A stretch of 46,349 nt of DNA from a virus. Shown one piece after another: positions 5,216 to 46,349 of the stretch. The stretch's first letter is position 1, and each line of letters begins with the position of its first letter. Where the stretch lies: IMG/VR virus record IMGVR_UViG_3300025525_000001; one strand, 5' to 3'. A program made the position numbers and the translations under genes. Under the pieces are notes generated by a model. The model searched no databases and was not told where the DNA came from. It worked only from the letters and a program-made list of their open reading frames with translations.

Positions 5216-5400
5216 AGCGGGGTCTTCGGTTTCGGCCGGCGGCAGACGTGGAACCCGCCACAGGCCGGGCAGCGATAGGTGTCGACGCCCTTGCCGTGCC
5301 AGGCCATGTTGCGAGCGGCGCGGATCGCGGCGGCTCCGTTGGGGAACCGCTCCTTACCCAAGCAGCTGGCCCCCTCGGCGTTGGTCGCGGATCGGGTCAT
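5197..5400 (-). CDS. Hypothetical small Zn-ribbon-like protein
   Basis: The internal ATG at 5400 is coupled (ATGA) to the GcrA-like stop. It contains YRCPACGGFHVC and encodes 67 aa. Confidence 0.55.
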   Translation of the reverse strand: MTRSATNAEGASCLGKERFPNGAAAIRAARNMAWHGKGVDTYRCPACGGFHVCRRPKPKTPLWRNKK

Positions 5401-6498: not shown

Positions 6499-7028
6499 TC
6501 CCCTTCATCCTTCTTCGCCTTCCGTTCCTCGCGTTCGATCTTCTTCGCGACCTTCGCGGCGGCCTCGCCTTTGCCCTTCGGACGGTAGGCCAGAACGTGC
6601 GTCGTGAAGGCGTCGAGGGCTTTCAAAATCTCGACCAGTCCAGACAGAACGGTCGGGTCATTGCCACAAGCCTCACGGAGGCGTTGGAGCATGAACCACG
6701 CCGACTTTTGGGTCACGCCGATCTGCTTCGCCAGTTGCATCGAAGAGATGCCCTTGCGGGACGTGACCAGCAGATACATGGCGTAGAGCCACTTATGGAG
6801 GGGAATGTGCGACCGCTCGAAGATGGTCGCCGTGCGGACGGTGAAGTCGCTCTTACAGGCGTTGCAACGGTAGAAGCCGCCCTTGCGGGTCGTGATGCGC
6901 CTCGCCTCGCTACAGGCCGGGCAGACGGCTCCCTCGGGCCAACGCTTGCCCTCCATGTAGGCCCGCGCCGCTTCTGCGTCAGGAAACATCTCGAAAAGCT
7001 GGAAGGTGGAGATTGTGGACTTGCTCAC
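6495..7028 (-). CDS. IS1595-type transposase N-terminal Zn-ribbon/HTH protein lacking the DDE domain
   Basis: FPDAEAARAYMEGKRWPEGAVCPACS...YRCNACKSDFTVRTATIFERSHIPLHKWLYAMYLLVTSRKGISSMQLAKQIGVTQKSAWFMLQRLREA is the canonical IS1595/ISXO2 N-terminus. Similarity stops at ...GLVEI, where the DDE domain (VEiDEtyiGG) would begin. The GTG start at 7028 is coupled (GTGA). Confidence 0.7.
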   Translation of the reverse strand: MSKSTISTFQLFEMFPDAEAARAYMEGKRWPEGAVCPACSEARRITTRKGGFYRCNACKSDFTVRTATIFERSHIPLHKWLYAMYLLVTSRKGISSMQLAKQIGVTQKSAWFMLQRLREACGNDPTVLSGLVEILKALDAFTTHVLAYRPKGKGEAAAKVAKKIEREERKAKKDEGE

Positions 7029-7525
7029 TGAACAACATCCTTCGCGTCCCACGCCTTGGCCTCGCCGCAAGTGATGCAGGCGGCTTCCTCGACATGGGAG
7101 AGCGCGCCGCAGACGCACCGCTCGTAGTCGGTGGGCGCGAGCATCGCGCGGCCTTCGTCAGTGATGCGATAAACGTGCGGCTCATTCGCCTGAACGAGAA
7201 GCCCACGGCATTTCAGGAAGTATTGCGGGGTGCTGTAGGCGATGATCCACGGGCGGCCCATGTCATCGTATTTGGCGACGCGCGAGCCTCGCCGATCCCC
7301 GGCCCCGAAGCCGACAGCCCCACTGGACGAGCGGGCCGCAGCGGTGAGTATGAGAACCTGCGTAGGGGTCAGGCCCTTGATCCGGGGCATACGCGCGAGG
7401 CGCGGAGCCCGTTCGCGAGCGTGAATCTCCTGGAAGTTCGCCGAGTGACAAGCGGCGTGCCAGTTGTCGCCGCGCCTCAGTTGACCAGCAATGATGGGTT
7501 GGTCACACCCGCGACAGGCCGTCAT
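7025..7525 (-). CDS. Putative DNA-binding protein (winged-helix core flanked by Cys clusters)
   Basis: N-terminal CRGCDQ...WHAACH, a central MarR-like pattern (LTPTQVLILTAAA...YRITDEGRAML) and C-terminal CVCG...CITCG. An AAGGA RBS lies upstream. Confidence 0.5.
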   Translation of the reverse strand: MTACRGCDQPIIAGQLRRGDNWHAACHSANFQEIHARERAPRLARMPRIKGLTPTQVLILTAAARSSSGAVGFGAGDRRGSRVAKYDDMGRPWIIAYSTPQYFLKCRGLLVQANEPHVYRITDEGRAMLAPTDYERCVCGALSHVEEAACITCGEAKAWDAKDVVQ

Positions 7526-7528
7526 GGT

Positions 7529-7711
7529 TTAAATCCTTGTTTGACGGGGACAATCCCCGTGCACAAGTAGATATATACCCTCATTGTCCGAGGGAGTCAA
7601 ATATATAATTCCCGTTTTCAACAGCTCGATCAAGTCGGCCACCGTCATGTGGCCCTGCGCGTTAAACCGGGTTTCCAGCTCGGTGCGCTTTGCTTCTTGT
7701 CTCTTGGTCAT
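7529..7711 (-). CDS. Hypothetical 60-aa protein (contains the AT-rich island)
   Basis: The ATG at 7711 is coupled (ATGA) to the DNA polymerase stop. The longer 195-aa track ORF is an Arg-rich upstream extension that overlaps polA. Confidence 0.5.
   Translation of the reverse strand: MTKRQEAKRTELETRFNAQGHMTVADLIELLKTGIIYLTPSDNEGIYLLVHGDCPRQTRI
7572..7600 (-). promoter_or_regulatory. Consensus-like sigma70 promoter TTGACT-N17-TATATA with a palindromic spacer
   Basis: On the minus strand: TTGACT (7600-7595), a 17-nt spacer CCCTCGGACAATGAGGG (CCCTC/GAGGG arms) and TATATA (7577-7572). The GGGGACAATCCCC hairpin (7546-7558) and an AAGGA RBS lie downstream, before the ATG at 7525. Confidence 0.45.
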
Positions 7712-16159: not shown

Positions 16160-16344
16160 CACATATCCTCGTAGCGAAGGGCGTCCGAATACAGAGCCTG
16201 AATAGCTTCGGCTTCGGAGCACGGGCCCAACCGGTTAACAACCCACGAGGCGTGGTCTTGGGCTTCTTGTTCGTCGCAGCCGGTGTTCATGTACATGACC
16301 GCGTTGTAGCGCAGCGCAGCGGCTTCTTTTTCGGAGACACGCAT
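16159..16344 (-). CDS. Hypothetical protein, first gene of the leftward block
   Basis: 61-aa ORF preceded by GCGAAAAGGACAAGACCG-ATG. Confidence 0.6.
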   Translation of the reverse strand: MRVSEKEAAALRYNAVMYMNTGCDEQEAQDHASWVVNRLGPCSEAEAIQALYSDALRYEDM

Positions 16345-16502
16345 CGGTCTTGTCCTTTTCGCTCGGCCGCTTGTCCGGCCTGGCCCCCTCTCTGAACCAG
16401 TCCACAGCGCCTGTCAAGCGTTTGGTTGTGAAAAAGATGGCCTTGCATCTCTCAAGCGTTTGGTTGTAAGGAGGGAGCCCAACAGCGAAAAGGACAAAGC
16501 TG
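16345..16502. promoter_or_regulatory. Divergent control region with a 16-bp direct repeat and mirrored translation-initiation regions
   Basis: TCAAGCGTTTGGTTGT occurs at 16414-16429 and 16452-16467. The inverted copies GCGAAAAGGACAA (16349-16362 on the minus strand, 16485-16499 on the plus strand) sit just before the two divergent ATGs. Confidence 0.7.
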
Positions 16503-16994
16503 ATGAGCGACCAATCCCAACCCGCAGACACGGCCGGAGAGGCGGTGGCTTGGGTCTCGAGAACCGTTCTGGCTCGACTGGCTGAAAGCGACAAGGGGTG
16601 CGAGACCGCCAATCTTTGGAAAAGCCAACCGACCAAGGAGAGCGTCGCCCTCTACGCCCATCCAAGGGCAGAGGCTCCTTCCGTAGTAGGGGCGCTGGAA
16701 ATGGCGCGGGCTTTCATCATCGACCAATATTCGTGCGCGGAGTCGTCTGCTTTGGCGGGCGACCCTATCAGTGAGGAAGCCCGACCTGTCCGCGACGCGC
16801 TGTGCGCAGCGCTAGCCGCCCTTTCATCAGCAGAAGGTCAGGGTTCATCCTCGGCTCTGGACCATCTGATAGACGAGGCATTCGACGCCGGGCCGCAACA
16901 ACCCGCATATGGGCCGTTGACCCCCGAACCAGGAGCTAACAGCCCAGATAATGGTGGTTCCGCTGCGCCGTTCAAGAATGGGGCGGGGGAATGA
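16503..16994 (+). CDS. Hypothetical protein, first gene of the rightward block
   Basis: 163-aa ORF preceded by GCGAAAAGGACAAAGCTG-ATG. It has an ATGA overlap with the methyltransferase gene. Confidence 0.65.
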   Translation: MSDQSQPADTAGEAVAWVSRTVLARLAESDKGCETANLWKSQPTKESVALYAHPRAEAPSVVGALEMARAFIIDQYSCAESSALAGDPISEEARPVRDALCAALAALSSAEGQGSSSALDHLIDEAFDAGPQQPAYGPLTPEPGANSPDNGGSAAPFKNGAGE

Positions 16995-17719
16995 TCTGCG
17001 ACCTGCGGTTCGGAGACTGCCTCGACCTGCTGCCGGCACTGGCGGACAAGTCTGTCGACCTCGTGCTGGCCGATATGCCTTACGGAACAACCCGGTGCGC
17101 GTGGGATGTCCAGATAGACCTGCAGCGTCTCTGGCCTGAACTCCGGCGGGTGTGTCGCGGGGCTATCGTCCTGTTCGCGCAGTCACCCTTCGACAAGGTG
17201 TTGGGTGCGTCCAACCTGCCGATGCTCCGCTACGAGTGGATATGGGAGAAGACCAACGCCACCGGACATCTGAACGCAAAGCGGGCTCCGATGAAGGCGC
17301 ACGAGAACGTGCTTGTCTTCTATGATGGCCGCCCGACCTACAACCCGCAGATGACGACCGGCCATGCGCGCAAGGTGGCCAAAAGCAAGTCCCGAGAGGC
17401 CTCGGTCGTATACGGCGAGCAAAGCCGTCTAGGTAGCTACGACAGCACCGAGAGATACCCGAGATCGGTGCTTACCTTCGCCAGCGACAAGCAGCGGTCG
17501 AAACTGCACCCGACGCAAAAGCCCCTTGGGCTGTGCGAATATCTTGTGCGGACGCACAGCAATCCCGGCGACACAGTTCTCGACTTCTGCATGGGGTCGG
17601 GAACAACCGGCGCTGCCTGCCAGAACCTCGGCCGTCGCTTCATCGGCATTGAATCCGATGCCTCCCACTTCGCCACTGCAGCCACGCGCCTTGGCGTCCA
17701 AACGGAGATCGCAGCATGA
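16991..17719 (+). CDS. DNA methyltransferase, beta-class N6-adenine/N4-cytosine (N6_N4_Mtase family)
   Basis: Motif IV DMPY (LADMPYG) lies N-terminal to HPTQKP and motif I FCMGSGTTG, which is the beta-class order also seen in CcrM. The protein is 242 aa. Confidence 0.85.
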   Translation: MICDLRFGDCLDLLPALADKSVDLVLADMPYGTTRCAWDVQIDLQRLWPELRRVCRGAIVLFAQSPFDKVLGASNLPMLRYEWIWEKTNATGHLNAKRAPMKAHENVLVFYDGRPTYNPQMTTGHARKVAKSKSREASVVYGEQSRLGSYDSTERYPRSVLTFASDKQRSKLHPTQKPLGLCEYLVRTHSNPGDTVLDFCMGSGTTGAACQNLGRRFIGIESDASHFATAATRLGVQTEIAA

Positions 17720-18938: not shown

Positions 18939-19213
18939 CCGACCAGTACAAGGAACCGCTGCGCGCCCGGCCTGACCCTCGCGACGAGGAGGTCCGGCTC
19001 GCTGGTCTTGTAACGGGCGGCGAGAGCCCCCGGCCGCCGCGCTACAGGCCTTACGAGGCGGTCAAGGAGAAAGACCTGACCGGCCGTATTGCGGCCCCGG
19101 GTCTGATGTTCAAACCTGACGCTCCGCGGGGCCGCAAGGTGCCGATGCCCAACGAAGGCCCTGCCCAGGCGTGGCCGGGCAAGTATCCCTCCGAACCCCG
19201 CCGCAAGGACTGA
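18935..19213 (+). CDS. Hypothetical basic/Pro-rich protein
   Basis: 92-aa ORF with a GTG start coupled (GTGA) to the upstream stop. Confidence 0.5.
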   Translation: MTDQYKEPLRARPDPRDEEVRLAGLVTGGESPRPPRYRPYEAVKEKDLTGRIAAPGLMFKPDAPRGRKVPMPNEGPAQAWPGKYPSEPRRKD

Positions 19214-19215
19214 CG

Positions 19216-20004
19216 GTGCAAAAGGACAATCTCATCGCGGCGCTCCAGCCGCTGGTTAGCCGTGCCCAGCCGAAGATACTGGACCTGTTCTGCGGCGCGG
19301 GCGGCGCGGGCATGGGCTACTCACTGGCCGGCTTCGACGTGTACGGCGTCGATCTGCTGCCTCAGAAGCGATACCCCTTCGCCTTCCACCAAGGCGACGT
19401 GATCGCGGTCGTGGAGGGGCTTCTCCGGGGCGAGCGCGTCGCCTTCACCCACCCGGGCGGGACAGTCGAGCACCTCTCGCTCACGGACTTCGACGCGATC
19501 CACGCCTCGCCGCCCTGTCAGGCGCACACGTCGCTGAAGTCGATGCATAACGCCAAGCAGCACCTCGATCTGGTCCCCGCGACTCGGCGTTTCCTTGATG
19601 ACGCGGGGGTGCCATGGATCATCGAGAACGTCGTTGGTGCTCCCCTGATTGACCCGGTAGTGCTTTGCGGCACGATGTTCGGCCTTGGTGTCTCCGACGC
19701 GGAGCTTCGCCGGCACCGCTTGTTCGAGGGGAGCTTCCCGCTCTTCGCGCCCCGCTGCCAGCATGGGAAACGGCCCCGAACAACTACCCGGCCGCGGACC
19801 ATCGGCATCTACGGGGAGGGGTGCCGCGACAGCCGGCGCAAGTTCGACAAGACGATCCCGGAGTTCACGGTCGTGGACGCGCGTGTCGCCATGGGCATCG
19901 ACTGGATGACCCTGGCCGAACTCTGCCAAGCCATCCCACCCTCGTATACCGCTTGGCTTGGCCGCCAAGTGCTCGACCAAATCCGGTTCGGAGACCTCGC
20001 ATGA
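19216..20004 (+). CDS. DNA (cytosine-5)-methyltransferase
   Basis: Motif I LDLFCGAGG, motif IV HASPPCQ (catalytic Cys), motif VI IIENV and RRHRLF. The GTG at 19216 has AAGGA 6 nt upstream. The protein is 262 aa. Confidence 0.85.
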   Translation: MQKDNLIAALQPLVSRAQPKILDLFCGAGGAGMGYSLAGFDVYGVDLLPQKRYPFAFHQGDVIAVVEGLLRGERVAFTHPGGTVEHLSLTDFDAIHASPPCQAHTSLKSMHNAKQHLDLVPATRRFLDDAGVPWIIENVVGAPLIDPVVLCGTMFGLGVSDAELRRHRLFEGSFPLFAPRCQHGKRPRTTTRPRTIGIYGEGCRDSRRKFDKTIPEFTVVDARVAMGIDWMTLAELCQAIPPSYTAWLGRQVLDQIRFGDLA

Positions 20005-22232
20005 GCGGCCTTGTAGAAGCTCTGCAGCCGCTGGTCAGCCGTGCTCGGACGGACGTGACCGCCATCAAGGCCTCGACCGGCATGGCGTGGACCCGGGAGG
20101 CGCTGACCGAAGTCCGGTTGAAGCGCCACCTGGACGGCACGATGCCCCGCGGCGTCTGCCCCATCAAGGCCGGGGAGAGCACCACCCGCATTGCCCTGTT
20201 CGACCTGGACAGCCACAAGGGGGCGACCAGCTGGGAGGAGATGTCAGGCGTGGCCTCGCGGCTTGCGGGGTCGCTTGAAGCCGAAGGCTTCCATCCGGTG
20301 CTGTTCCGCTCGACTGGCGGCAGGGGCATCCACATCTTCTTGGTGTGGAACGAGCCCCAGGACGCTTACTCTGTGCGCCGCTGCATGGACCACTTCCTCG
20401 CCTCCTTGGGTTTCGGGAACGGCGCGAAAGGGGTGGCCAACGGGGAGATCGAGGTCTTCCCCAAACAGGACAGCGTGCCCGAGCACGGCTTCGGCAACCA
20501 GTTCATCCTGCCCTTGGCCGGCAAGTCCGCGCCGCTGGAGCCGATGCTCAACTACGAGGTGATGCCCCGCGAGTATGCGCTGAAGCTGGAGTGGAAGCCC
20601 TCGGCCCCGGTGCCAGTGGTCGAGAAGCCCGAAAGGCAGCTGCGGGCTATGGACGATCAGCTTGCCGAGGCTTTCTGGTTCGGCGCGGAAGGGCCGGTGC
20701 CTAAGCTCCGCGAGGCCCTGGCCGCCATCCCCAACGACACCGATCCGCTGGGCTATGACGAGTGGCGCGACATCGTCTCGGGCATCCACCACGCCACCAG
20801 CGGCTCGGACGAGGGCTATCAGCTGGCCTATGAGTTCTCGTCCCGGGCCCCGCACTTCGATGAGGACGAGCTGGCCATCAAGGTCTGGGCCTGGCTCGAC
20901 CAGAAGGGCGAGACCGCCAACCCGATCACCGAACGCACCGTCTTCGCCAAGGCCCGCGAGCACGGGTGGGCCGACCAGGCATCGCCTGACGACTTCGAGG
21001 ATTTGACACCGGCGCTGCGCGAAGAGCAGGTCGATCTCCCCCTCCCCGGCTTCCAGCGTGATGGCAACGGCCGGATCGAGGCTGTCCTCGGCAACGTCCG
21101 ATCCGCTTTGTTGAGGCCAGACGTCTGCGGCATGGACCTTCGCTTCGACGAGTTCCGCTTCGAGATCGTCTTCGCCGACGTCGAGCACCCGGGCAAGTGG
21201 CTGGCCTTCAAGGACCACCACGCGGTCGAGCTGCGCCTGACCCTGGAGCGGATGGGCTTCAAGCCGGTCGGCCGCGAGCTGATGAGGGACGTGGTCAACT
21301 ACGTCGCCCAGCACAACGTCGTCGACACGGCCCAGGTCTGGCTGGACAGCCTGAAATGGGACGGCGTGTCGCGGGTCGGCCGCTTCTACGAGACCTACTT
21401 CGGCGTCGCCCCCTCGCCCTATAGCAGGGCGGTGTCGCGCTACACCTGGACGGCGATGGCTGGCCGCGTGCGCGTGCCCGGGGTCCAGGCCGACATGGTG
21501 CCCATCGTCACCGGGAGCCAGGGCCAGCGCAAGACAAGCGGCATCGTGGCCATGGTCCCCAACGACACCTTCCGCGAGCTGTCGTTCCACCAGTCCGAAG
21601 AGGACCGGGCCCGGCTCATGCGCGGGTGCCTGATGGTTGAACTCGCCGAGCTGTCGGGCCTCAAGACCCGGGAGAACGAACAGATTAAGGCCTGGATCAC
21701 GCGGCGCAAGGAGGACTGGACACCGAAGTACCAGGAGTTCGCCGTCTCCATGTGGCGGCGGTGCGTCATGCTGGCGACGTCCAACCCGACCGACCTGCTC
21801 GACGACCCTACAGGCGCTCGGCGGTGGTTGCCGATGGCGTCGGGGAACGTGGGTGTCGAGGGCATCGCCCGGGACCGCGACCAGCTGTGGGCCGAGGCCG
21901 ATGTCCTGTTCGCCGCCGGCGGCGTGGACTGGCGCGAAGCCCAGGCCCTGGCAGAGGACGAGCACGAGGCTTACCGCGTTGTCGATGGGTGGGAAGAGGC
22001 CATCGAACGGTGGCTTGAGACCCCCGAGCTGGACGGGTTGCTGCCCTACCCGTACGGCTTCACCACGCACCAGGCCCTGGTCGAGGGGCTCAGTTTCCGC
22101 GAAAACGCAATAAAACGCATGGACGAGACCCGTATGGCGAAGGCGCTGAAGGCCTTGGGCTACACGCAAAAAGTTACAAGAAGGAACGGGAAAGGGTTGA
22201 GACTGTGGGTCGGCAACGGACGGCAATGGTAG
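20001..22232 (+). CDS. Bifunctional primase-polymerase / VirE(D5)-type helicase
   Basis: ATG at 20001 (ATGA junction). Prim-pol motifs ALFDLDSHKG and GGRGIHIFLVW; a PriCT-like segment (WRDIVSGIHHATSGSDEGYQLAYEFS); a P-loop VTGSQGQRKTSG in a VirE-like C-terminal half. Confidence 0.85.
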   Translation: MSGLVEALQPLVSRARTDVTAIKASTGMAWTREALTEVRLKRHLDGTMPRGVCPIKAGESTTRIALFDLDSHKGATSWEEMSGVASRLAGSLEAEGFHPVLFRSTGGRGIHIFLVWNEPQDAYSVRRCMDHFLASLGFGNGAKGVANGEIEVFPKQDSVPEHGFGNQFILPLAGKSAPLEPMLNYEVMPREYALKLEWKPSAPVPVVEKPERQLRAMDDQLAEAFWFGAEGPVPKLREALAAIPNDTDPLGYDEWRDIVSGIHHATSGSDEGYQLAYEFSSRAPHFDEDELAIKVWAWLDQKGETANPITERTVFAKAREHGWADQASPDDFEDLTPALREEQVDLPLPGFQRDGNGRIEAVLGNVRSALLRPDVCGMDLRFDEFRFEIVFADVEHPGKWLAFKDHHAVELRLTLERMGFKPVGRELMRDVVNYVAQHNVVDTAQVWLDSLKWDGVSRVGRFYETYFGVAPSPYSRAVSRYTWTAMAGRVRVPGVQADMVPIVTGSQGQRKTSGIVAMVPNDTFRELSFHQSEEDRARLMRGCLMVELAELSGLKTRENEQIKAWITRRKEDWTPKYQEFAVSMWRRCVMLATSNPTDLLDDPTGARRWLPMASGNVGVEGIARDRDQLWAEADVLFAAGGVDWREAQALAEDEHEAYRVVDGWEEAIERWLETPELDGLLPYPYGFTTHQALVEGLSFRENAIKRMDETRMAKALKALGYTQKVTRRNGKGLRLWVGNGRQW

Positions 22233-22490
22233 GGCAACAGTTAAGTGTTGCCCGGGAAACCCAAGCCACAAGCGGGTTTGAAGGGCAGCAACACTAGCAA
22301 CACTTACTTCTCAACTATAAGAGATAATATATAGGGCCCCCCGTAGAGCCCCCAGAGGAAAGGTAGGAGCAAACTTACTGTTGCACCCCCAAAATGGGTC
22401 GAAAACTTAACGAAAACCAAGGGCTTAACCTGCAACACACGTAAGTGTTGCGTCCCGTTGCACCCCCCTTTCTTGCAGGATTTTGCAGAT
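22232..22490. promoter_or_regulatory. Iteron/palindrome-rich AT island (candidate origin, late promoter and/or pac region)
   Basis: Palindromes GGGCAACAgttaagTGTTGCCC (22232-22253) and GCAACACacgtaaGTGTTGC (22432-22451); tandem GCAACAC at 22288 and 22297; GTTGCACCCCC at 22380 and 22457; an AT-rich stretch at 22304-22334. This is the largest non-coding gap in the genome. Confidence 0.65.
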
Positions 22491-22694
22491 ATGACGCGCA
22501 GAGCAGGACACCGCTATGGCGAGAGGCACCACCGGGCCAAGATCACCGACGCCGAGGTCGAGCTGATCCGCAGCCTGTACGAGGAGGGCGGGTGGACCTA
22601 TCGGTCGCTCGCCGAGAAGATGGACATCAACTTCAGCACGGTGCGCGACATCGTGAAGTTCCGACGCCGTGTCGGGCCAGCGGTGCGGACGTGA
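22491..22694 (+). CDS. Small HTH DNA-binding protein
   Basis: GERHHRAKITDAEVELIRSLYEEGGWTYRSLAEKMDINFSTVRDIVKFR is an HTH pattern. No obvious SD precedes the ATG at 22491. The track ORF starts at a TTG at 22458. Confidence 0.6.
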   Translation: MTRRAGHRYGERHHRAKITDAEVELIRSLYEEGGWTYRSLAEKMDINFSTVRDIVKFRRRVGPAVRT

Positions 22695-22873
22695 TGGGCC
22701 TCTGCCAACACGGCGTGGTTCGCGAGGAGTGCGCTGTCTGCAATCCGCCTTCTGCTGCGGAACAGCGGTGGTTGGATCGCCGATACGGTAAGAGGGGCGA
22801 GGTTAGCAGTCGCCTGAAAGAGGCTAGAGCCGCCCGTAAGGCTGTGTGCAACCCCACCCCGGATCGCGCGTAG
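22694..22873 (+). CDS. Hypothetical Cys-rich 59-aa protein
   Basis: ATG at 22694 (TGATG junction; GTG at 22691 is also possible). It contains CQHG...CAVC. Confidence 0.45.
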   Translation: MGLCQHGVVREECAVCNPPSAAEQRWLDRRYGKRGEVSSRLKEARAARKAVCNPTPDRA

Positions 22874-22886
22874 TCTCACCTGAACC

Positions 22887-23438
22887 ATGACCCGACCTCT
22901 GCTCAACATCCCGGTCGACCCCTTCGACCCCAAAGCGGCCGAGCATATCTGCAAGGAGCTGTCGCAGGGCATCGTGCTGGCCCAGACGCTGCGCGATTGG
23001 CCCGAAGAGCTGGGCGTGGCCCCGAGCCGCTGGACGGTCTACGACTGGCGCAAGAAGAGCCCCGAGTTCGACGAGGCGTACCTGGAGGCCCGCGAGATGG
23101 GCTGCGACGCGCTCGCCGAGGACATCCCGTCGATCATCGAAGACGGGTCCAAGGACTGGATCACGCGCAAGGACCGCAACGGCAACGAGTACGAGGTCGT
23201 CGACCAGGAAGCCCTCGGCCGCTCGAAGCTGCGCGTCTACGGGCGCGAGAAGGTGCTGGCCATGTGGAGCCACCGCTACCGTCCGCAGCAGGGCATCCAG
23301 CTGTCCAATCCCGAGGGCGGCCCGGTCGAGTTCACCGACGCCGCGGCCTCGGCCAAGATCGCATCTCTGCTGTCGCTGGCCGCGGCCCGCAAAGCGGGGA
23401 CGGACGAAGAACCTGACGACGGGAGCGACCTGGCATGA
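22887..23438 (+). CDS. terS: Terminase small subunit
   Basis: ICKELSQGIVLAQTLRDW...PSRWTVYDWRKKSPEFDEAYLEAREMGCDALAEDI...SKLRVYGREKVLAMWSHRYRP follows the common TerS pattern. It sits upstream of terL. Confidence 0.7.
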   Translation: MTRPLLNIPVDPFDPKAAEHICKELSQGIVLAQTLRDWPEELGVAPSRWTVYDWRKKSPEFDEAYLEAREMGCDALAEDIPSIIEDGSKDWITRKDRNGNEYEVVDQEALGRSKLRVYGREKVLAMWSHRYRPQQGIQLSNPEGGPVEFTDAAASAKIASLLSLAAARKAGTDEEPDDGSDLA

Positions 23439-23599
23439 ACAAGAACCGCAAACCTGCTAATCCGAGGCAGACGGCCATCGAGGAGCGTATCCGCGAGGGC
23501 GCGAAACCGCGACCGCTTCTGGAGCGGGACGCCCTGCTGGCGCGCAAACCTCGCCCGGCCGGAACCAAGGGCGGGAAGAACAAGCGAGCCCCCGTCTGA
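23435..23599 (+). CDS. Micro-ORF: 54-aa highly basic protein
   Basis: Read by hand as MNKNRKPANPRQTAIEERIREGAKPRPLLERDALLARKPRPAGTKGGKNKRAPV*. It is ATGA-coupled and below the track cut-off. Confidence 0.45.
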   Translation: MNKNRKPANPRQTAIEERIREGAKPRPLLERDALLARKPRPAGTKGGKNKRAPV

Positions 23600-44284: not shown

Positions 44285-44294
44285 GTGTGCTTAA
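44281..44294 (+). promoter_or_regulatory. CTAGGTGTGCTTAA motif, copy 2, followed by a GC hairpin
   Basis: Identical to 27797-27810. The TAG is the stop of the giant gene. It is followed by gcgggg-gcc-ccccgc (44295-44309), 34 nt upstream of the tailspike start. Confidence 0.5.
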
Positions 44295-44342
44295 GCGGGG
44301 GCCCCCCGCCTAGGATCGCCGCGACCTTCGGAGCAATATCTC

Positions 44343-46349
44343 TTGGCCATCTCCACCCCCGTTCGCAAGGCCGGTCCTTACTTCGGCAACGACGCGACCA
44401 CCGTTTTCCCGTTCGCCTTCAAGGTGTTCGCGGCGGGCGATCTGCTGGTCGTCTTCACGAACCAGCTCGGTGTTGAGAGCGACCTGGTCCTGAACACGGA
44501 CTACACGGTCACGCTGAACAGCAACCAGGACGTGGACCCGGGCGGCTCGGTAACGCTGACTGCGCCCCTGGCCGTGGGTCGGCGGCTCACCATCACGTCC
44601 GGCCTGGAGGCTCTGCAGCCTCTGGTGCTGACCAACAACGGCGGCTTCTACCCCCGGGTCATCAACGACGCTTTCGACCGCATCACGATGATCGCACAGC
44701 AGCTGGTCGAACAGCTGGGCCGGTCGTTGAAACTGCCGATCAGCTCGACTGCCAGCGCGACCCTGCCGGACCCTGTGCCGAACAGCCTCATCGCCTGGGA
44801 TAGCTTGGGCGCAGGCTTTACCAACGTGCCCCCCGGCGATCTGATCTCTGTCGCGGGGTACGCCGACGCGCGCATAGAAACGTTCGACGGGGACGGCGTC
44901 GAGACCGAGTTCGAGATCGACTTCCACCCCGGCGTGATGGCGAACCTGGACGTCTCCATCAACGGCGTGACCCAGGTCGGAGGCGAGGATTTCACCTGGC
45001 TGGGCACCACGGTGCTGTTCACTTCGCCGCCGCCCGCGGGCACCCGTATCCTGGTCCGCTACGCCCGGCCGCTGTCGCCGCTGCCGGACTTCGACAGCAT
45101 CCTGACGTCGGTCGAAGACGCCGAAGCAGCCGCCGCTGCGGCAGAAGCCGCCGCGGTCGCGGGGGACAGGGTGCCGTATGTGGCCCTCGCAGCCTCTGGC
45201 GGCCCCGGCCTTGTCGGCTGGCTCTCGCTGGGCGTCGGCGGTGTTCTACGGACCCTGCTGGCCAAGGTGCGTGAGACCCCCTTGTCGCCCGAGGATTTCG
45301 GCGCGGTCGGGAACGGCACGACGGACGACAGCGACGCTATCGAAAAGGCGCTGAACGCGGCGACGCTGATTAACGGTCGGATGGTGGGCAAGGTGGACGC
45401 GAGCTACCGCGTCCCCTCGCTCAAAACCATCACTCGGGCCGCCACGTCCAAGCGCCTCGAAATCGACTGGAACGGGGCCGAGCTGTTCCTTGACGAGGGC
45501 GCGCTCTACATTGTCGGCCCGCCCCCCTATTTGACCACGACCCTTGCTGCGGACGCGGCGCTTGGCGACCTGAAACTGACACTGGCCAGCACGGCGGGCG
45601 CGGCGGTCGGTGACCTGATCGTGGCCGAAAGCCCAGCCTATTCGCTCGCCACCCAGCCGACCAAGCACGTCTACGTCATCCGCAAAGTTGGAACCGGCGG
45701 GGAGTTGTTCATCGACGGTTGCGTGGTGGCGGACATCACCGAGCAGCAGGTGATCGACAGCCTCGGCGTGACGGCCCCCATCGCCGTCAGCCTTCGCAAG
45801 CTGGTTCCCGGCCTGACGATGAAAAACGGGCGCGTTCGGCACGTTGACGCGACGGGCGCTGTGATCGGGGTGATGTTTGAGGGGCAACTGAACCCCTACC
45901 GCGAGCGGATGATCCACACCGGGAACACCCGCGTTCAGATGAACGTGCGATTTGGCACGGGCGACCTGGAGGTTGGCTGCGAATACCGCGACTTCGGCTA
46001 TGTCGACGCGGTGAGCCCGCCGGACGGCCTGCGTTATGGCTACGGCCTGCTGCATGAGTGGAACTTCAAGTCCACGGTCATCGGGTCGTCGGGCTCCAAC
46101 GGCTGGCACGTCTTCGACGCCTCCGGCGGCCAGATGCACATCGACTATATCGGATGTCGGTCCTTCAACTGCTCGTTCGGCTTCTCCAGCCATGAGAGCG
46201 CGTGGCACATCAACTACTACGACTGCGAGAACATCGGACAGGTTGGGTGGGAGGCCACGCGCGGCGTTTACCTGACGATGGTCAACTGCCGAAACCGGAA
46301 GACGGCGGGAACGTCAGGCATTGCCATTGGCTTGTCGCAGTCCGTTCAG
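44343..46349 (+). CDS. Tailspike/tail fibre, N-terminal part (open at the window end, continues at 1..767)
   Basis: The TTG at 44343 is the only start after the in-frame TAA at 44292, and GGAG lies 10 nt upstream. The N-terminus AGPYFGNDATTVFPFAFKVF is a common fibre N-domain. PEDFGAVGNGTTDDSDAIEKALNAA (~45291-45350) is the pectate-lyase-type beta-helix signature. I read the frame by hand and found no stop up to 46349. Confidence 0.8.
   Translation, partial: MAISTPVRKAGPYFGNDATTVFPFAFKVFAAGDLLVVFTNQLGVESDLVLNTDYTVTLNSNQDVDPGGSVTLTAPLAVGRRLTITSGLEALQPLVLTNNGGFYPRVINDAFDRITMIAQQLVEQLGRSLKLPISSTASATLPDPVPNSLIAWDSLGAGFTNVPPGDLISVAGYADARIETFDGDGVETEFEIDFHPGVMANLDVSINGVTQVGGEDFTWLGTTVLFTSPPPAGTRILVRYARPLSPLPDFDSILTSVEDAEAAAAAAEAAAVAGDRVPYVALAASGGPGLVGWLSLGVGGVLRTLLAKVRETPLSPEDFGAVGNGTTDDSDAIEKALNAATLINGRMVGKVDASYRVPSLKTITRAATSKRLEIDWNGAELFLDEGALYIVGPPPYLTTTLAADAALGDLKLTLASTAGAAVGDLIVAESPAYSLATQPTKHVYVIRKVGTGGELFIDGCVVADITEQQVIDSLGVTAPIAVSLRKLVPGLTMKNGRVRHVDATGAVIGVMFEGQLNPYRERMIHTGNTRVQMNVRFGTGDLEVGCEYRDFGYVDAVSPPDGLRYGYGLLHEWNFKSTVIGSSGSNGWHVFDASGGQMHIDYIGCRSFNCSFGFSSHESAWHINYYDCENIGQVGWEATRGVYLTMVNCRNRKTAGTSGIAIGLSQSVQ
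46225..46349. repeat. Terminal direct repeat, right copy (identical to 1..125)
   Basis: Same 125-nt string as the window start. It lies inside an open reading frame that has no stop before the window end. Confidence 0.95.

Follow-up and report, generated by a model that had tools for sequence, protein, structure and literature searches.

Array of short repeats downstream of the primase-helicase gene

We analyzed a virus-derived stretch of DNA of 46,349 nucleotides (nt) (IMG/VR record IMGVR_UViG_3300025525_000001; here called the window), a phage-like genome of 46.3 kb with 66% GC, and focused on an array of short repeats that we propose to be its replication origin. The array is bordered upstream by the gene of a primase-helicase and downstream by genes for a small helix-turn-helix (HTH) protein, an Sf6-like TerS, TerL, and a T7-like portal protein (Table 1). 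The order of replication and methylase genes, array, and HTH-terminase-structural block runs entirely on the plus strand.

The core word GCAACA, or its complement TGTTGC, is present exactly seven times (22234+, 22246-, 22288+, 22297+, 22379-, 22432+, and 22446-), and five of the seven exact GCAACAC copies of the whole 46-kb window fall within 22245-22451. Three degenerate in-register copies (two GCAACGG and one GCAATGG) are phased at 10 to 11 bp with the exact ones. When these are counted, the array comprises approximately 10 sites in 22213-22461 and begins within the primase gene, about 20 nt before the end of its coding sequence. Among 2000 shuffles of 22232-22490 that preserved dinucleotides, no 6-mer occurred more than five times (seven was never reached) and no 7-mer more than four times (five was never reached). 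A first-pass annotation of the same DNA had counted the core word at least eight times; the exact number is smaller, but the repeat cluster is real and the degenerate copies bring it to about 10. The coordinates given there for the two palindromes (P1 and P2), the tandem GCAACAC copies, the reverse complement of GCAACACTTAC, and the GTTGCACCCCC pair all match the sequence. GCAACACTTAC, which spans 22297-22307, recurs as its exact reverse complement at 22441-22451, and GTTGCACCCCC is present at both 22380-22390 and 22457-22467. That this is also the largest noncoding region of the window is plausible, as the larger gaps in a crude map of GC content at third codon positions (GC3) are probably coding (they are covered by open reading frames [ORFs] whose codon bias is weaker or by an ORF that crosses the junction of the window's ends).

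From left to right, the array consists of three phased direct copies and one inverted copy (P1), a spacer with a weak hairpin, and two tandem direct copies. To the right of a 74-bp center follow one inverted copy, a second spacer, and P2 with one more inverted copy. The left outer set straddles the primase stop codon, and its three direct copies are themselves phased at 10 to 11 bp. An AT-rich stretch makes up the center together with an imperfect GC palindrome and a purine-rich element. Around this palindrome, near 22340, the inner sets and also the outer sets are arranged in rough symmetry. The strands are unequally represented, with six sites on the plus strand and four on the minus strand. 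P1 and P2 fold more stably than shuffled sequences (z of -5.4 and -2.9, respectively). We found no second iteron cluster, crr-like element, or alternative origin in the other intergenic regions of the window.

Concerted change of the repeat word among relatives

No close relatives at the DNA level were found among 50,697 GenBank phages in either near or distant search mode. Our comparisons used a close set of 21 loci (from IMG/VR and JGI metagenomes and one Variovorax genome), in which the primase-helicases are 71 to 78% identical (41% in Variovorax), and a further set of 71 loci with primase-helicase identities of 28 to 78%. The window and 12 distinct close genomes (primase identity, 71 to 78%) were combined into alignment A1. 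The intergenic DNA is alignable in A1, with conservation of the AT-rich stretch, the GC palindrome, and GGAAAGGTAG...AAAA. When each genome's own word is marked on A1, the repeat slots are in register in 13 of 13 sequences. The + + + - pattern of the left outer slots is in register in the close relatives and is present in distant relatives as well. The left inner and right outer slots are also conserved, and the right inner slot holds one to three inverted copies.

The word filling these slots differs between genomes: GCAACAC in the window, GTCTACAC in L004, L002, and L019, CTCTACAC in L014, GGTTACAC in L010, GGTTACGAC in L005, GGTTACAAC in L003, GTAACAC or GCAACAG in L013, and CGTAACA in L001, L008, and L016. 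The words change at three positions 5' of an invariant AC. At these positions, agreement is 0.67 to 0.76 among the slots of one genome and 0.45 to 0.47 for the same slot across genomes, whereas the AC is equally conserved within and between genomes. The tandem direct repeats switch their word together with the inverted repeats, and base pairing alone is therefore insufficient as the constraint. Such concerted change is the signature of multiple sites read by one coevolving protein and not of a base-paired structure.

This pattern bears on a rival interpretation in which the left and right halves of the array form a large stem-loop or cruciform and the initiator recognizes this structure instead of individual double-stranded iterons. 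Precedents exist: in pRN1, a stem-loop downstream of orf904 is required for replication, and a large stem-loop has been predicted 3' of its homologue in BIP-1 (the region that follows the BIP-1/BPP-1 replication protein), with no iterons found at that site (PMC4234260). In the window, pairing is possible between the left (+) and the right (-) repeats, and the 271-nt region folds somewhat better than shuffled sequences (z of -2.0). However, this makes the long-range fold only marginally better than shuffles, and pairing between the flanks is poor (73 to 87%). Pairing also gives no explanation for the tandem and phased direct repeats that change in concert with the inverted ones, or for the unequal number of sites on the two strands. 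The 10- to 11-bp phasing and the covariation with a winged-helix wing (see below) fit recognition of duplex DNA, and we regard a structure-recognized origin as unlikely. A structured RNA was rejected as well: no Rfam family matched at the gathering score or at an E value of ≤1, no tRNA or tmRNA was detected, and the direct repeats change in concert.

Among more distant loci, we scored a 7-mer that occurs at least five times within approximately 440 nt after the stop codon and is commoner there than in any other part of the locus. Of 54 metagenomic loci evaluated, 27 have such a word, and detailed mapping of 14 loci showed the layout of the window (+ + + - and + + to the left of the AT-rich stretch, - - to the right). 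Distant relatives with 28 to 47% identity, including phages YeP5 and APSE-1, have their own arrays right after the primase-helicase gene. The cultured phages with arrays are Yersinia phage YeP5 (TAGACAACC), APSE-1 (GTAAC(A/G)ACC), Caulobacter phage Jess A, and BPP-1, in which 2+2 inverted TTGCCTCGT repeats surround an AT-rich center. The synteny primase-array-HTH-TerS-TerL is kept in close relatives, Jess A, and BPP-1. In many of the distant loci examined, no HTH or TerS homologue was found downstream of the array, which indicates that the array travels with the primase-helicase. A search of IMG/VR for other genomes with GCAACAC iterons returned 120 unrelated loci with a loose pattern, none of them with a primase homologue, and nothing with a stricter pattern.

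The primase-helicase as predicted initiator

The start codon of the primase-helicase gene was chosen by alignment to relatives and by an ATGA overlap with the upstream methyltransferase ORF. The protein has VapE-like (2.7e-51), AEP-TOTE (3e-13), and PriCT_2 (3e-9) matches in Pfam and also matches PHROG DNA helicase/primase families. Helicase residues 423 to 675 match PDB entry 7pds, a Rep protein of staphylococcal pathogenicity islands (SaPIs), with an E value of 3.4e-17; by this sequence match, the helicase core is homologous to SaPI Rep helicases.

An AlphaFold2 model of the last 146 residues (mean predicted local distance difference test score of 82, and >90 within the domain) has the topology H-b-H-H-b-b of a winged helix. 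Foldseek searches with this model retrieved winged-helix proteins, and the top probability was that of 7pds, PriRep1 with double-stranded DNA (0.84), at E values that were not significant (0.28 to 0.36 at best).

In four relatives, iterons that overlap the 3' end of the primase gene are translated into repeated peptide tails (L025 at 6760-6790, L041, L042, and L065). One such tail, VPTVPT, is encoded by GTTCCTAC repeats. The extreme C terminus of the initiator would in these cases be shaped by its own binding sites.

The C-terminal domain covaries with the repeats

We compared the similarity of the repeats, taken as the cosine of 6-mers present at least three times per array, with protein identity in Mantel tests. 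The correlation was highest for the last 40 to 60 residues of the primase-helicase (r = 0.53 to 0.57; P = 0.0002 to 0.0006). It was at most 0.24 for windows of the primase that lie upstream of the C-terminal ~90 residues, 0.12 for the helicase core, 0.08 for the AEP domain, 0.19 to 0.24 for the HTH protein, -0.01 for TerS, and 0.19 for TerL. The C-terminal domain is the only protein segment, among those compared, whose variation tracks iteron type. In partial Mantel tests, its correlation with the repeats was 0.52 given the helicase, 0.48 given the interleaved scaffold DNA, and 0.55 given the HTH protein. Given the C-terminal domain, the correlation of the HTH protein became -0.24 and that of the scaffold fell to -0.03, the latter of which argues against simple linkage. 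The result was retained when codons overlapping iterons were removed (0.57), when the window was removed (0.54), and when near-duplicates were dropped (0.40; P = 0.004).

Within the domain, the wing segment alone gave an r of 0.56 and the two helices an r of 0.32. Comparisons of individual genomes point to the same residues. In the C termini of L010 and L014, 5 of 11 wing residues differ, along with only 5 of approximately 450 alignment columns outside the wing; these genomes use GGTTACAC and CTCTACAC, respectively, yet their TerS proteins are 99% identical and their HTH proteins 98% identical. In L011, helices like those of L010 occur together with a wing like that of L004, and the repeats are a mixture of GGTTAC and GTCTAC. 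At one wing position, arginine is found in 5 of 5 genomes with AAC-type words and lysine in 8 of 8 genomes with TAC-type words. Judged by this covariation, the iteron sequence appears to be specific to its cognate initiator.

The HTH protein (22491-22694) and TerS had been suggested earlier as candidates for binding the repeats, and the comparison speaks against both. The HTH protein is 95 to 98% identical, with an identical second helix, across seven genomes that use six repeat words; this near invariance rules it out as the determinant of specificity. TerS identity is similarly high in pairs of genomes with different repeats (L010/L014, 99%; L002/L008, 95%; L004/L016, 93%).

These identities also weigh on two further interpretations of the array. 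Some TerS proteins recognize repeated sites. The array lies 400 to 650 bp upstream of terS and terL, within the synteny described above, and could be read as a pac site at which TerS binds and headful packaging starts. The type of TerS, however, does not track the repeat word. Arrays of the same layout also follow the primase gene in YeP5, APSE-1, the Variovorax locus, and many metagenomic loci in which no terS homologue was found in the downstream DNA examined, and the window, as a circular assembly, has no informative end. We consider a pac site extremely improbable.

Alternatively, the repeats might be operators in a late-operon promoter region, through which the HTH protein or another regulator switches on the structural genes. 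The position of the array, exactly between the replication and methylase genes and the HTH-terminase-structural block, fits such a role, as do the presence of an HTH homologue after the array in several distant relatives (Jess A and BPP-1 among them) and the weak terminator-like hairpin after the primase stop codon. Against it stand the uniformity of the HTH protein despite differing words, the negative association of this protein once the primase C-terminal domain is controlled for, and the persistence of the array where no HTH gene was found. A TTACTT-N17-ATATAT match had been noted earlier, but it does not pass a standard consensus scan of 21500-23500, which covers the sigma-70 type only and finds no promoter. 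In relatives, the last repeat ends 10 to 15 nt before the ribosome-binding site, which leaves no space for a separate promoter. An operator role of the repeats thus seems very unlikely.

Central and spacer elements

The 31-mer with the lowest GC content in the window (0.23) is 22302-22332. The annotated claim that the most AT-rich stretch of the genome lies here thus stands at the 31-nt scale but not at the 100-nt scale, where 7521-7620 has the lowest GC content (0.42), slightly below that of the array region. An AT-rich stretch is found at the same place in close and distant relatives.

The GC-rich palindrome next to it is perfect (GGGGCCC-N6-GGGCCCC) in several relatives, and distant relatives have GC-rich or alternating CG tracts at this position. 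As a stable structure, the window's GC palindrome does not exceed shuffled sequences. G-T wobbles favor opposite strands in different relatives, so the strand on which a structure would form is not inferable. The adjoining purine-rich GAGGAAAGGTAGGAGCAAA and the equivalent positions in L001 to L020 account for most of the invariant columns of the intergenic alignment A1, and AGGT(A/T)-type words recur in some distant relatives. This element could be a priming site or a loading signal. A search for a common motif in the origin cores of distant relatives gave nothing significant.

The AAACCC/GGGTTT hairpin reported in the first-pass annotation exists, but its stability does not exceed that of shuffled sequences (z of -0.5). 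One clade of relatives keeps it, and others have A-rich sequence in its place; it may act as a weak terminator for the operon upstream or be a mere spacer. In 5 of 12 close relatives, an exact IHF consensus occurs at the position of the window's IHF-like site, with none elsewhere in the 107 kb of their loci.

Table 1. Coordinates of the array elements and adjoining genes (window numbering)
Feature	Position	Strand	Description
Primase-helicase gene	20001-22232	+	743 amino acids from ATG at 20001; TAG stop 22230-22232; AEP primase, PriCT-2, VapE/SF3 helicase, and C-terminal domains
Predicted C-terminal winged-helix domain (coding part)	21990-22211	+	Proposed iteron-specificity determinant; recognition helix RMDETRMAKALKA; wing TQKVTRR-NG-KGLRLWV; window's wing stretch TQKVTRRNGKGLRLWV
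Left outer iteron set	22213-22251		GCAACGG 22213-22219 (+), GCAATGG 22223-22229 (+), GCAACAG 22234 (+); inverted copy 22245-22251 (-)
Palindrome P1	22232-22253		GGGCAACA-gttaag-TGTTGCCC; overlaps last base of TAG stop
AAACCC/GGGTTT hairpin, then TTTG	22257-22279	+	Between outer and inner iterons; weak
Left inner pair	22288-22303	+	Tandem direct (A)GCAACACT, 9 bp apart; GCAACAC 22288-22294 and 22297-22303; abuts AT-rich core
AT-rich core	22304-22334		Proposed DNA unwinding element
GC-rich imperfect palindrome	22334-22353		GGGCCCC-N-GAGCCCC; pseudo-dyad center of whole array
Conserved purine-rich element	22354-22373	+	GAGGAAAGGTAGGAGCAAA
Right inner iteron	22378-22384	-	GCAACAG; faces left inner pair across 74-bp core
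IHF-like site	22415-22427	+	AACCAAGGGCTTA; one mismatch versus WATCAANNNNTTR
Right outer iteron set	22432-22461		GCAACAC 22432 (+) and 22445-22451 (-), together P2 (22432-22451); degenerate GCAACGG 22455-22461 (-)
Small HTH protein gene	22491-22694	+	First gene 3' of array; weak HTH Pfam/PHROG matches
Sf6-like terS gene	22887-23438		

A candidate iteron origin and its proposed mechanism

The anatomy of the array, its in-register conservation, the concerted switching of words, the covariation with the C-terminal domain, and the helicase's homology to SaPI Rep, all established computationally, point to 22213-22461 as the iteron replication origin of the phage, placed directly 3' of its own initiator gene and probably read by the C-terminal winged helix of that initiator. 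We put the probability of this interpretation at roughly three in four. An origin, a late promoter/operator, a pac site, or a combination of these had initially been offered without a choice among them; the comparative data strongly support the origin but lend no support to a pac site or an operator of the HTH protein.

From this arrangement, we infer initiator binding, melting, helicase loading, and the actual start of replication at the array. In the model, the C-terminal winged helix of the primase-helicase would read the ~10 GCAAC(A/G) sites. The outer sets, with their phased direct repeats and palindrome, and the inner sets of opposite polarity would place helicase rings on either side of the 74-bp center. 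The 31-bp AT-rich stretch would then melt, the helicase would load itself, and the fused AEP primase would lay the first primers, after which the phage's own family-A DNA polymerase, SSB, and exonuclease would take over.

Several observations weigh against this interpretation. About half of the distant loci lack an exact 7-mer array above background, and in BPP-1, an opposite-strand ORF separates the array from the primase gene, so that the array adjoins the HTH homologue. The covariation rests on 11 to 14 related genomes, and because the C-terminal coding region physically adjoins the array, linkage may inflate the correlation (the control with interleaved scaffold DNA argues otherwise). The structural tie of the C-terminal domain to solved origin-binding domains, including that of SaPI Rep, consists of winged-helix matches that are statistically nonsignificant. 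No exact IHF consensus is present anywhere in the window (the site within the array is degenerate), and no DnaA box with up to two mismatches was found inside the array. GC skew gave no usable signal at the array, being flat and dominated by gene orientation, and is therefore uninformative. Finally, the array lies at the boundary of early and late genes, where an additional regulatory or packaging role is possible, as is a promoter embedded in the origin.

In favor of an origin, the metagenomic relative L049 has two perfect DnaA boxes (TGTGGATAA) at the center of its iteron array (approximately 5260-5300), which suggests that some family members may recruit host DnaA.

Comparison with known replication systems

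The array and its proposed initiator follow the paradigm of SaPI Rep-ori and P4 alpha, and the principle is already known. SaPI Reps are self-loading helicases whose C-terminal winged helix binds 6 to 12 penta- or hexanucleotide iterons located directly after rep; these iterons surround an AT-rich center, each side of which has at least two iterons of opposite direction, and in SaPI5 the primase and Rep are fused (PMC9371898, which cites Ubeda et al. 2007/2012). The window resembles this system in having an SF3/VapE-type helicase as its proposed initiator, fused to a primase as in SaPI5, with a predicted C-terminal winged helix. The candidate origin likewise lies directly downstream of the initiator gene (the first sites overlap its last codons and stop codon) and has a similar number of short iterons (~10) in two groups of opposite orientation around an AT-rich center (22288+ and 22297+ versus 22378-). 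Iteron specificity differs between elements in SaPIs, as it appears to do in the family of the window. In contrast to these Gram-positive satellites, the window is a 46-kb, 66% GC podovirus-like genome with its own DNA polymerase. Its iterons are 7 to 9 bp long with an invariant AC, outer palindromes are present, and phased repeats run into the coding sequence. A conserved GC palindrome lies in the center along with a purine-rich element, the primase belongs to the AEP/PriCT-2 type, and the C-terminal domains of the two systems show no detectable sequence likeness and only weak fold likeness.

The origin-binding domain of P4 alpha reads short repeated sites (iterons). P4 alpha is described in PMC4234260 (citing Ziegelin and Lanka 1995 and Yeo et al. 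2002) as one polypeptide with a primase, an SF3 helicase, and a C-terminal winged-helix origin-binding domain. It resembles the window's protein as a primase-helicase whose C-terminal winged helix (predicted in the window) binds, or in the window would bind, the origin repeats. P4 differs in that its primase is of the Toprim/DnaG type, its ori is not beside the gene for alpha, and a second element in cis (crr) is needed, whereas the window yielded no second repeat cluster.

The replication proteins of pRN1 (ORF904) and of BIP-1/BPP-1 share with the window, in this order, an AEP prim-pol, a helical or PriCT-2 domain, an SF3 helicase, and lastly a winged helix (predicted in the window), and their origins (a predicted one in BIP-1/BPP-1), too, lie just downstream of the replication gene. 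P4 alpha and pRN1 ORF904 are both functional analogues of the window's protein. Phages of the BPP-1 group have the same order of genes around the array. Our interpretation departs from the stem-loop proposal of PMC4234260 in that the constraint in the window is on repeated words, and BPP-1 itself carries 2+2 inverted repeats. These observations suggest that the constraint downstream of the BIP-1/BPP-1 homologue is also on repeated words.

Lambdoid origins combine iterons with an adjacent AT-rich region and a GC-rich palindrome, and their iteron specificity covaries with a domain of O. The lambda iterons lie inside the O gene, and O is neither a helicase nor a primase but recruits host DnaB through P. 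The window shares the iterons, the AT-rich region, the GC-rich palindrome, and a proposed initiator encoded next to or over its sites. Unlike in lambda, where the iterons are within the initiator gene and DnaB is recruited via P, the proposed initiator of the window is itself the primase-helicase.

Genome setting and other features

Bases 1 to 125 of the window are identical to 46225-46349, and an 898-codon ORF (GC3 of 0.84) runs from 44295 through the junction to 767. The window is therefore a circular assembly opened at an arbitrary point inside a gene, and the seemingly gene-free 2 kb at 44285-46349 is coding. A leftward module elsewhere in the window encodes the family-A DNA polymerase and the exonuclease together with an SF2 helicase and a Gp2.5-like SSB.

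Just 5' of the primase-helicase gene, at 16991-17719 and 19171-20004, lie two genes for DNA methyltransferases (one of N6/N4 and one of C5-like type); the one at 19171-20004 overlaps the primase-helicase start codon. The intergenic region from which the leftward replication module and the rightward genes diverge (16342-16505) contains a 19-nt direct repeat, CT(G/C)TCAAGCGTTTGGTTGT, at 16411 and 16449 (spacing of 38 nt). It also contains a 22-nt inverted repeat (CATCGGTCTTGTCCTTTTCGCT and AGCGAAAAGGACAAAGCTGATG), which makes the two divergent 5' leaders mirror images. This region is a candidate early promoter/operator region. Another intergenic patch, AT-rich and repeat-free, is located at 7526-7707, directly downstream of the DNA polymerase gene on the minus strand.

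In two relatives (L013 and L020), approximately 600 nt are inserted between the array and the HTH gene, and the opposite-strand ORF inserted in BPP-1 (L100, 1310-1666) is bbp28. Such insertions make the origin region look like a hotspot of gene acquisition.

Implications

Replication origins are rarely annotated in phage genomes. The prior origin proposal that we found for this phage and its relatives (BPP-1, Jess A, YeP5, APSE, and uncultured loci) consists of a predicted stem-loop only (PMC4234260). Our analysis provides a candidate origin with coordinates for each site and, for BPP-1-type phages, would correct the stem-loop proposed earlier. About half of the 54 metagenomic loci evaluated, and four cultured phages, have the same arrangement after a primase-helicase gene of this type. 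As a simple rule for automatic annotation, a genome-specific repeated word just 3' of a VapE-type primase-helicase gene may mark the origin. The natural swaps in specificity, which map to few wing residues, could serve for studying how winged helices read DNA and for building orthogonal primase-helicase/ori replicons.

More tentatively, and in our view less likely than not, the family may have one conserved chassis, consisting of the phased outer repeats, the inner tandem pair, the AT-rich core, the central GC palindrome, the purine-rich element, the IHF-like site, and the outer palindrome. On this chassis, three base positions of the ~10 iterons and a few wing residues would be swapped in concert (for example, lysine or arginine in the wing paired with T or A before the invariant AC), giving mutually orthogonal replicons. 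The origin may also couple replication to late expression or packaging. If the proposal of concerted swaps is true, coinfecting relatives would avoid cross-initiation, and the code by which the wing recognizes DNA would become readable.

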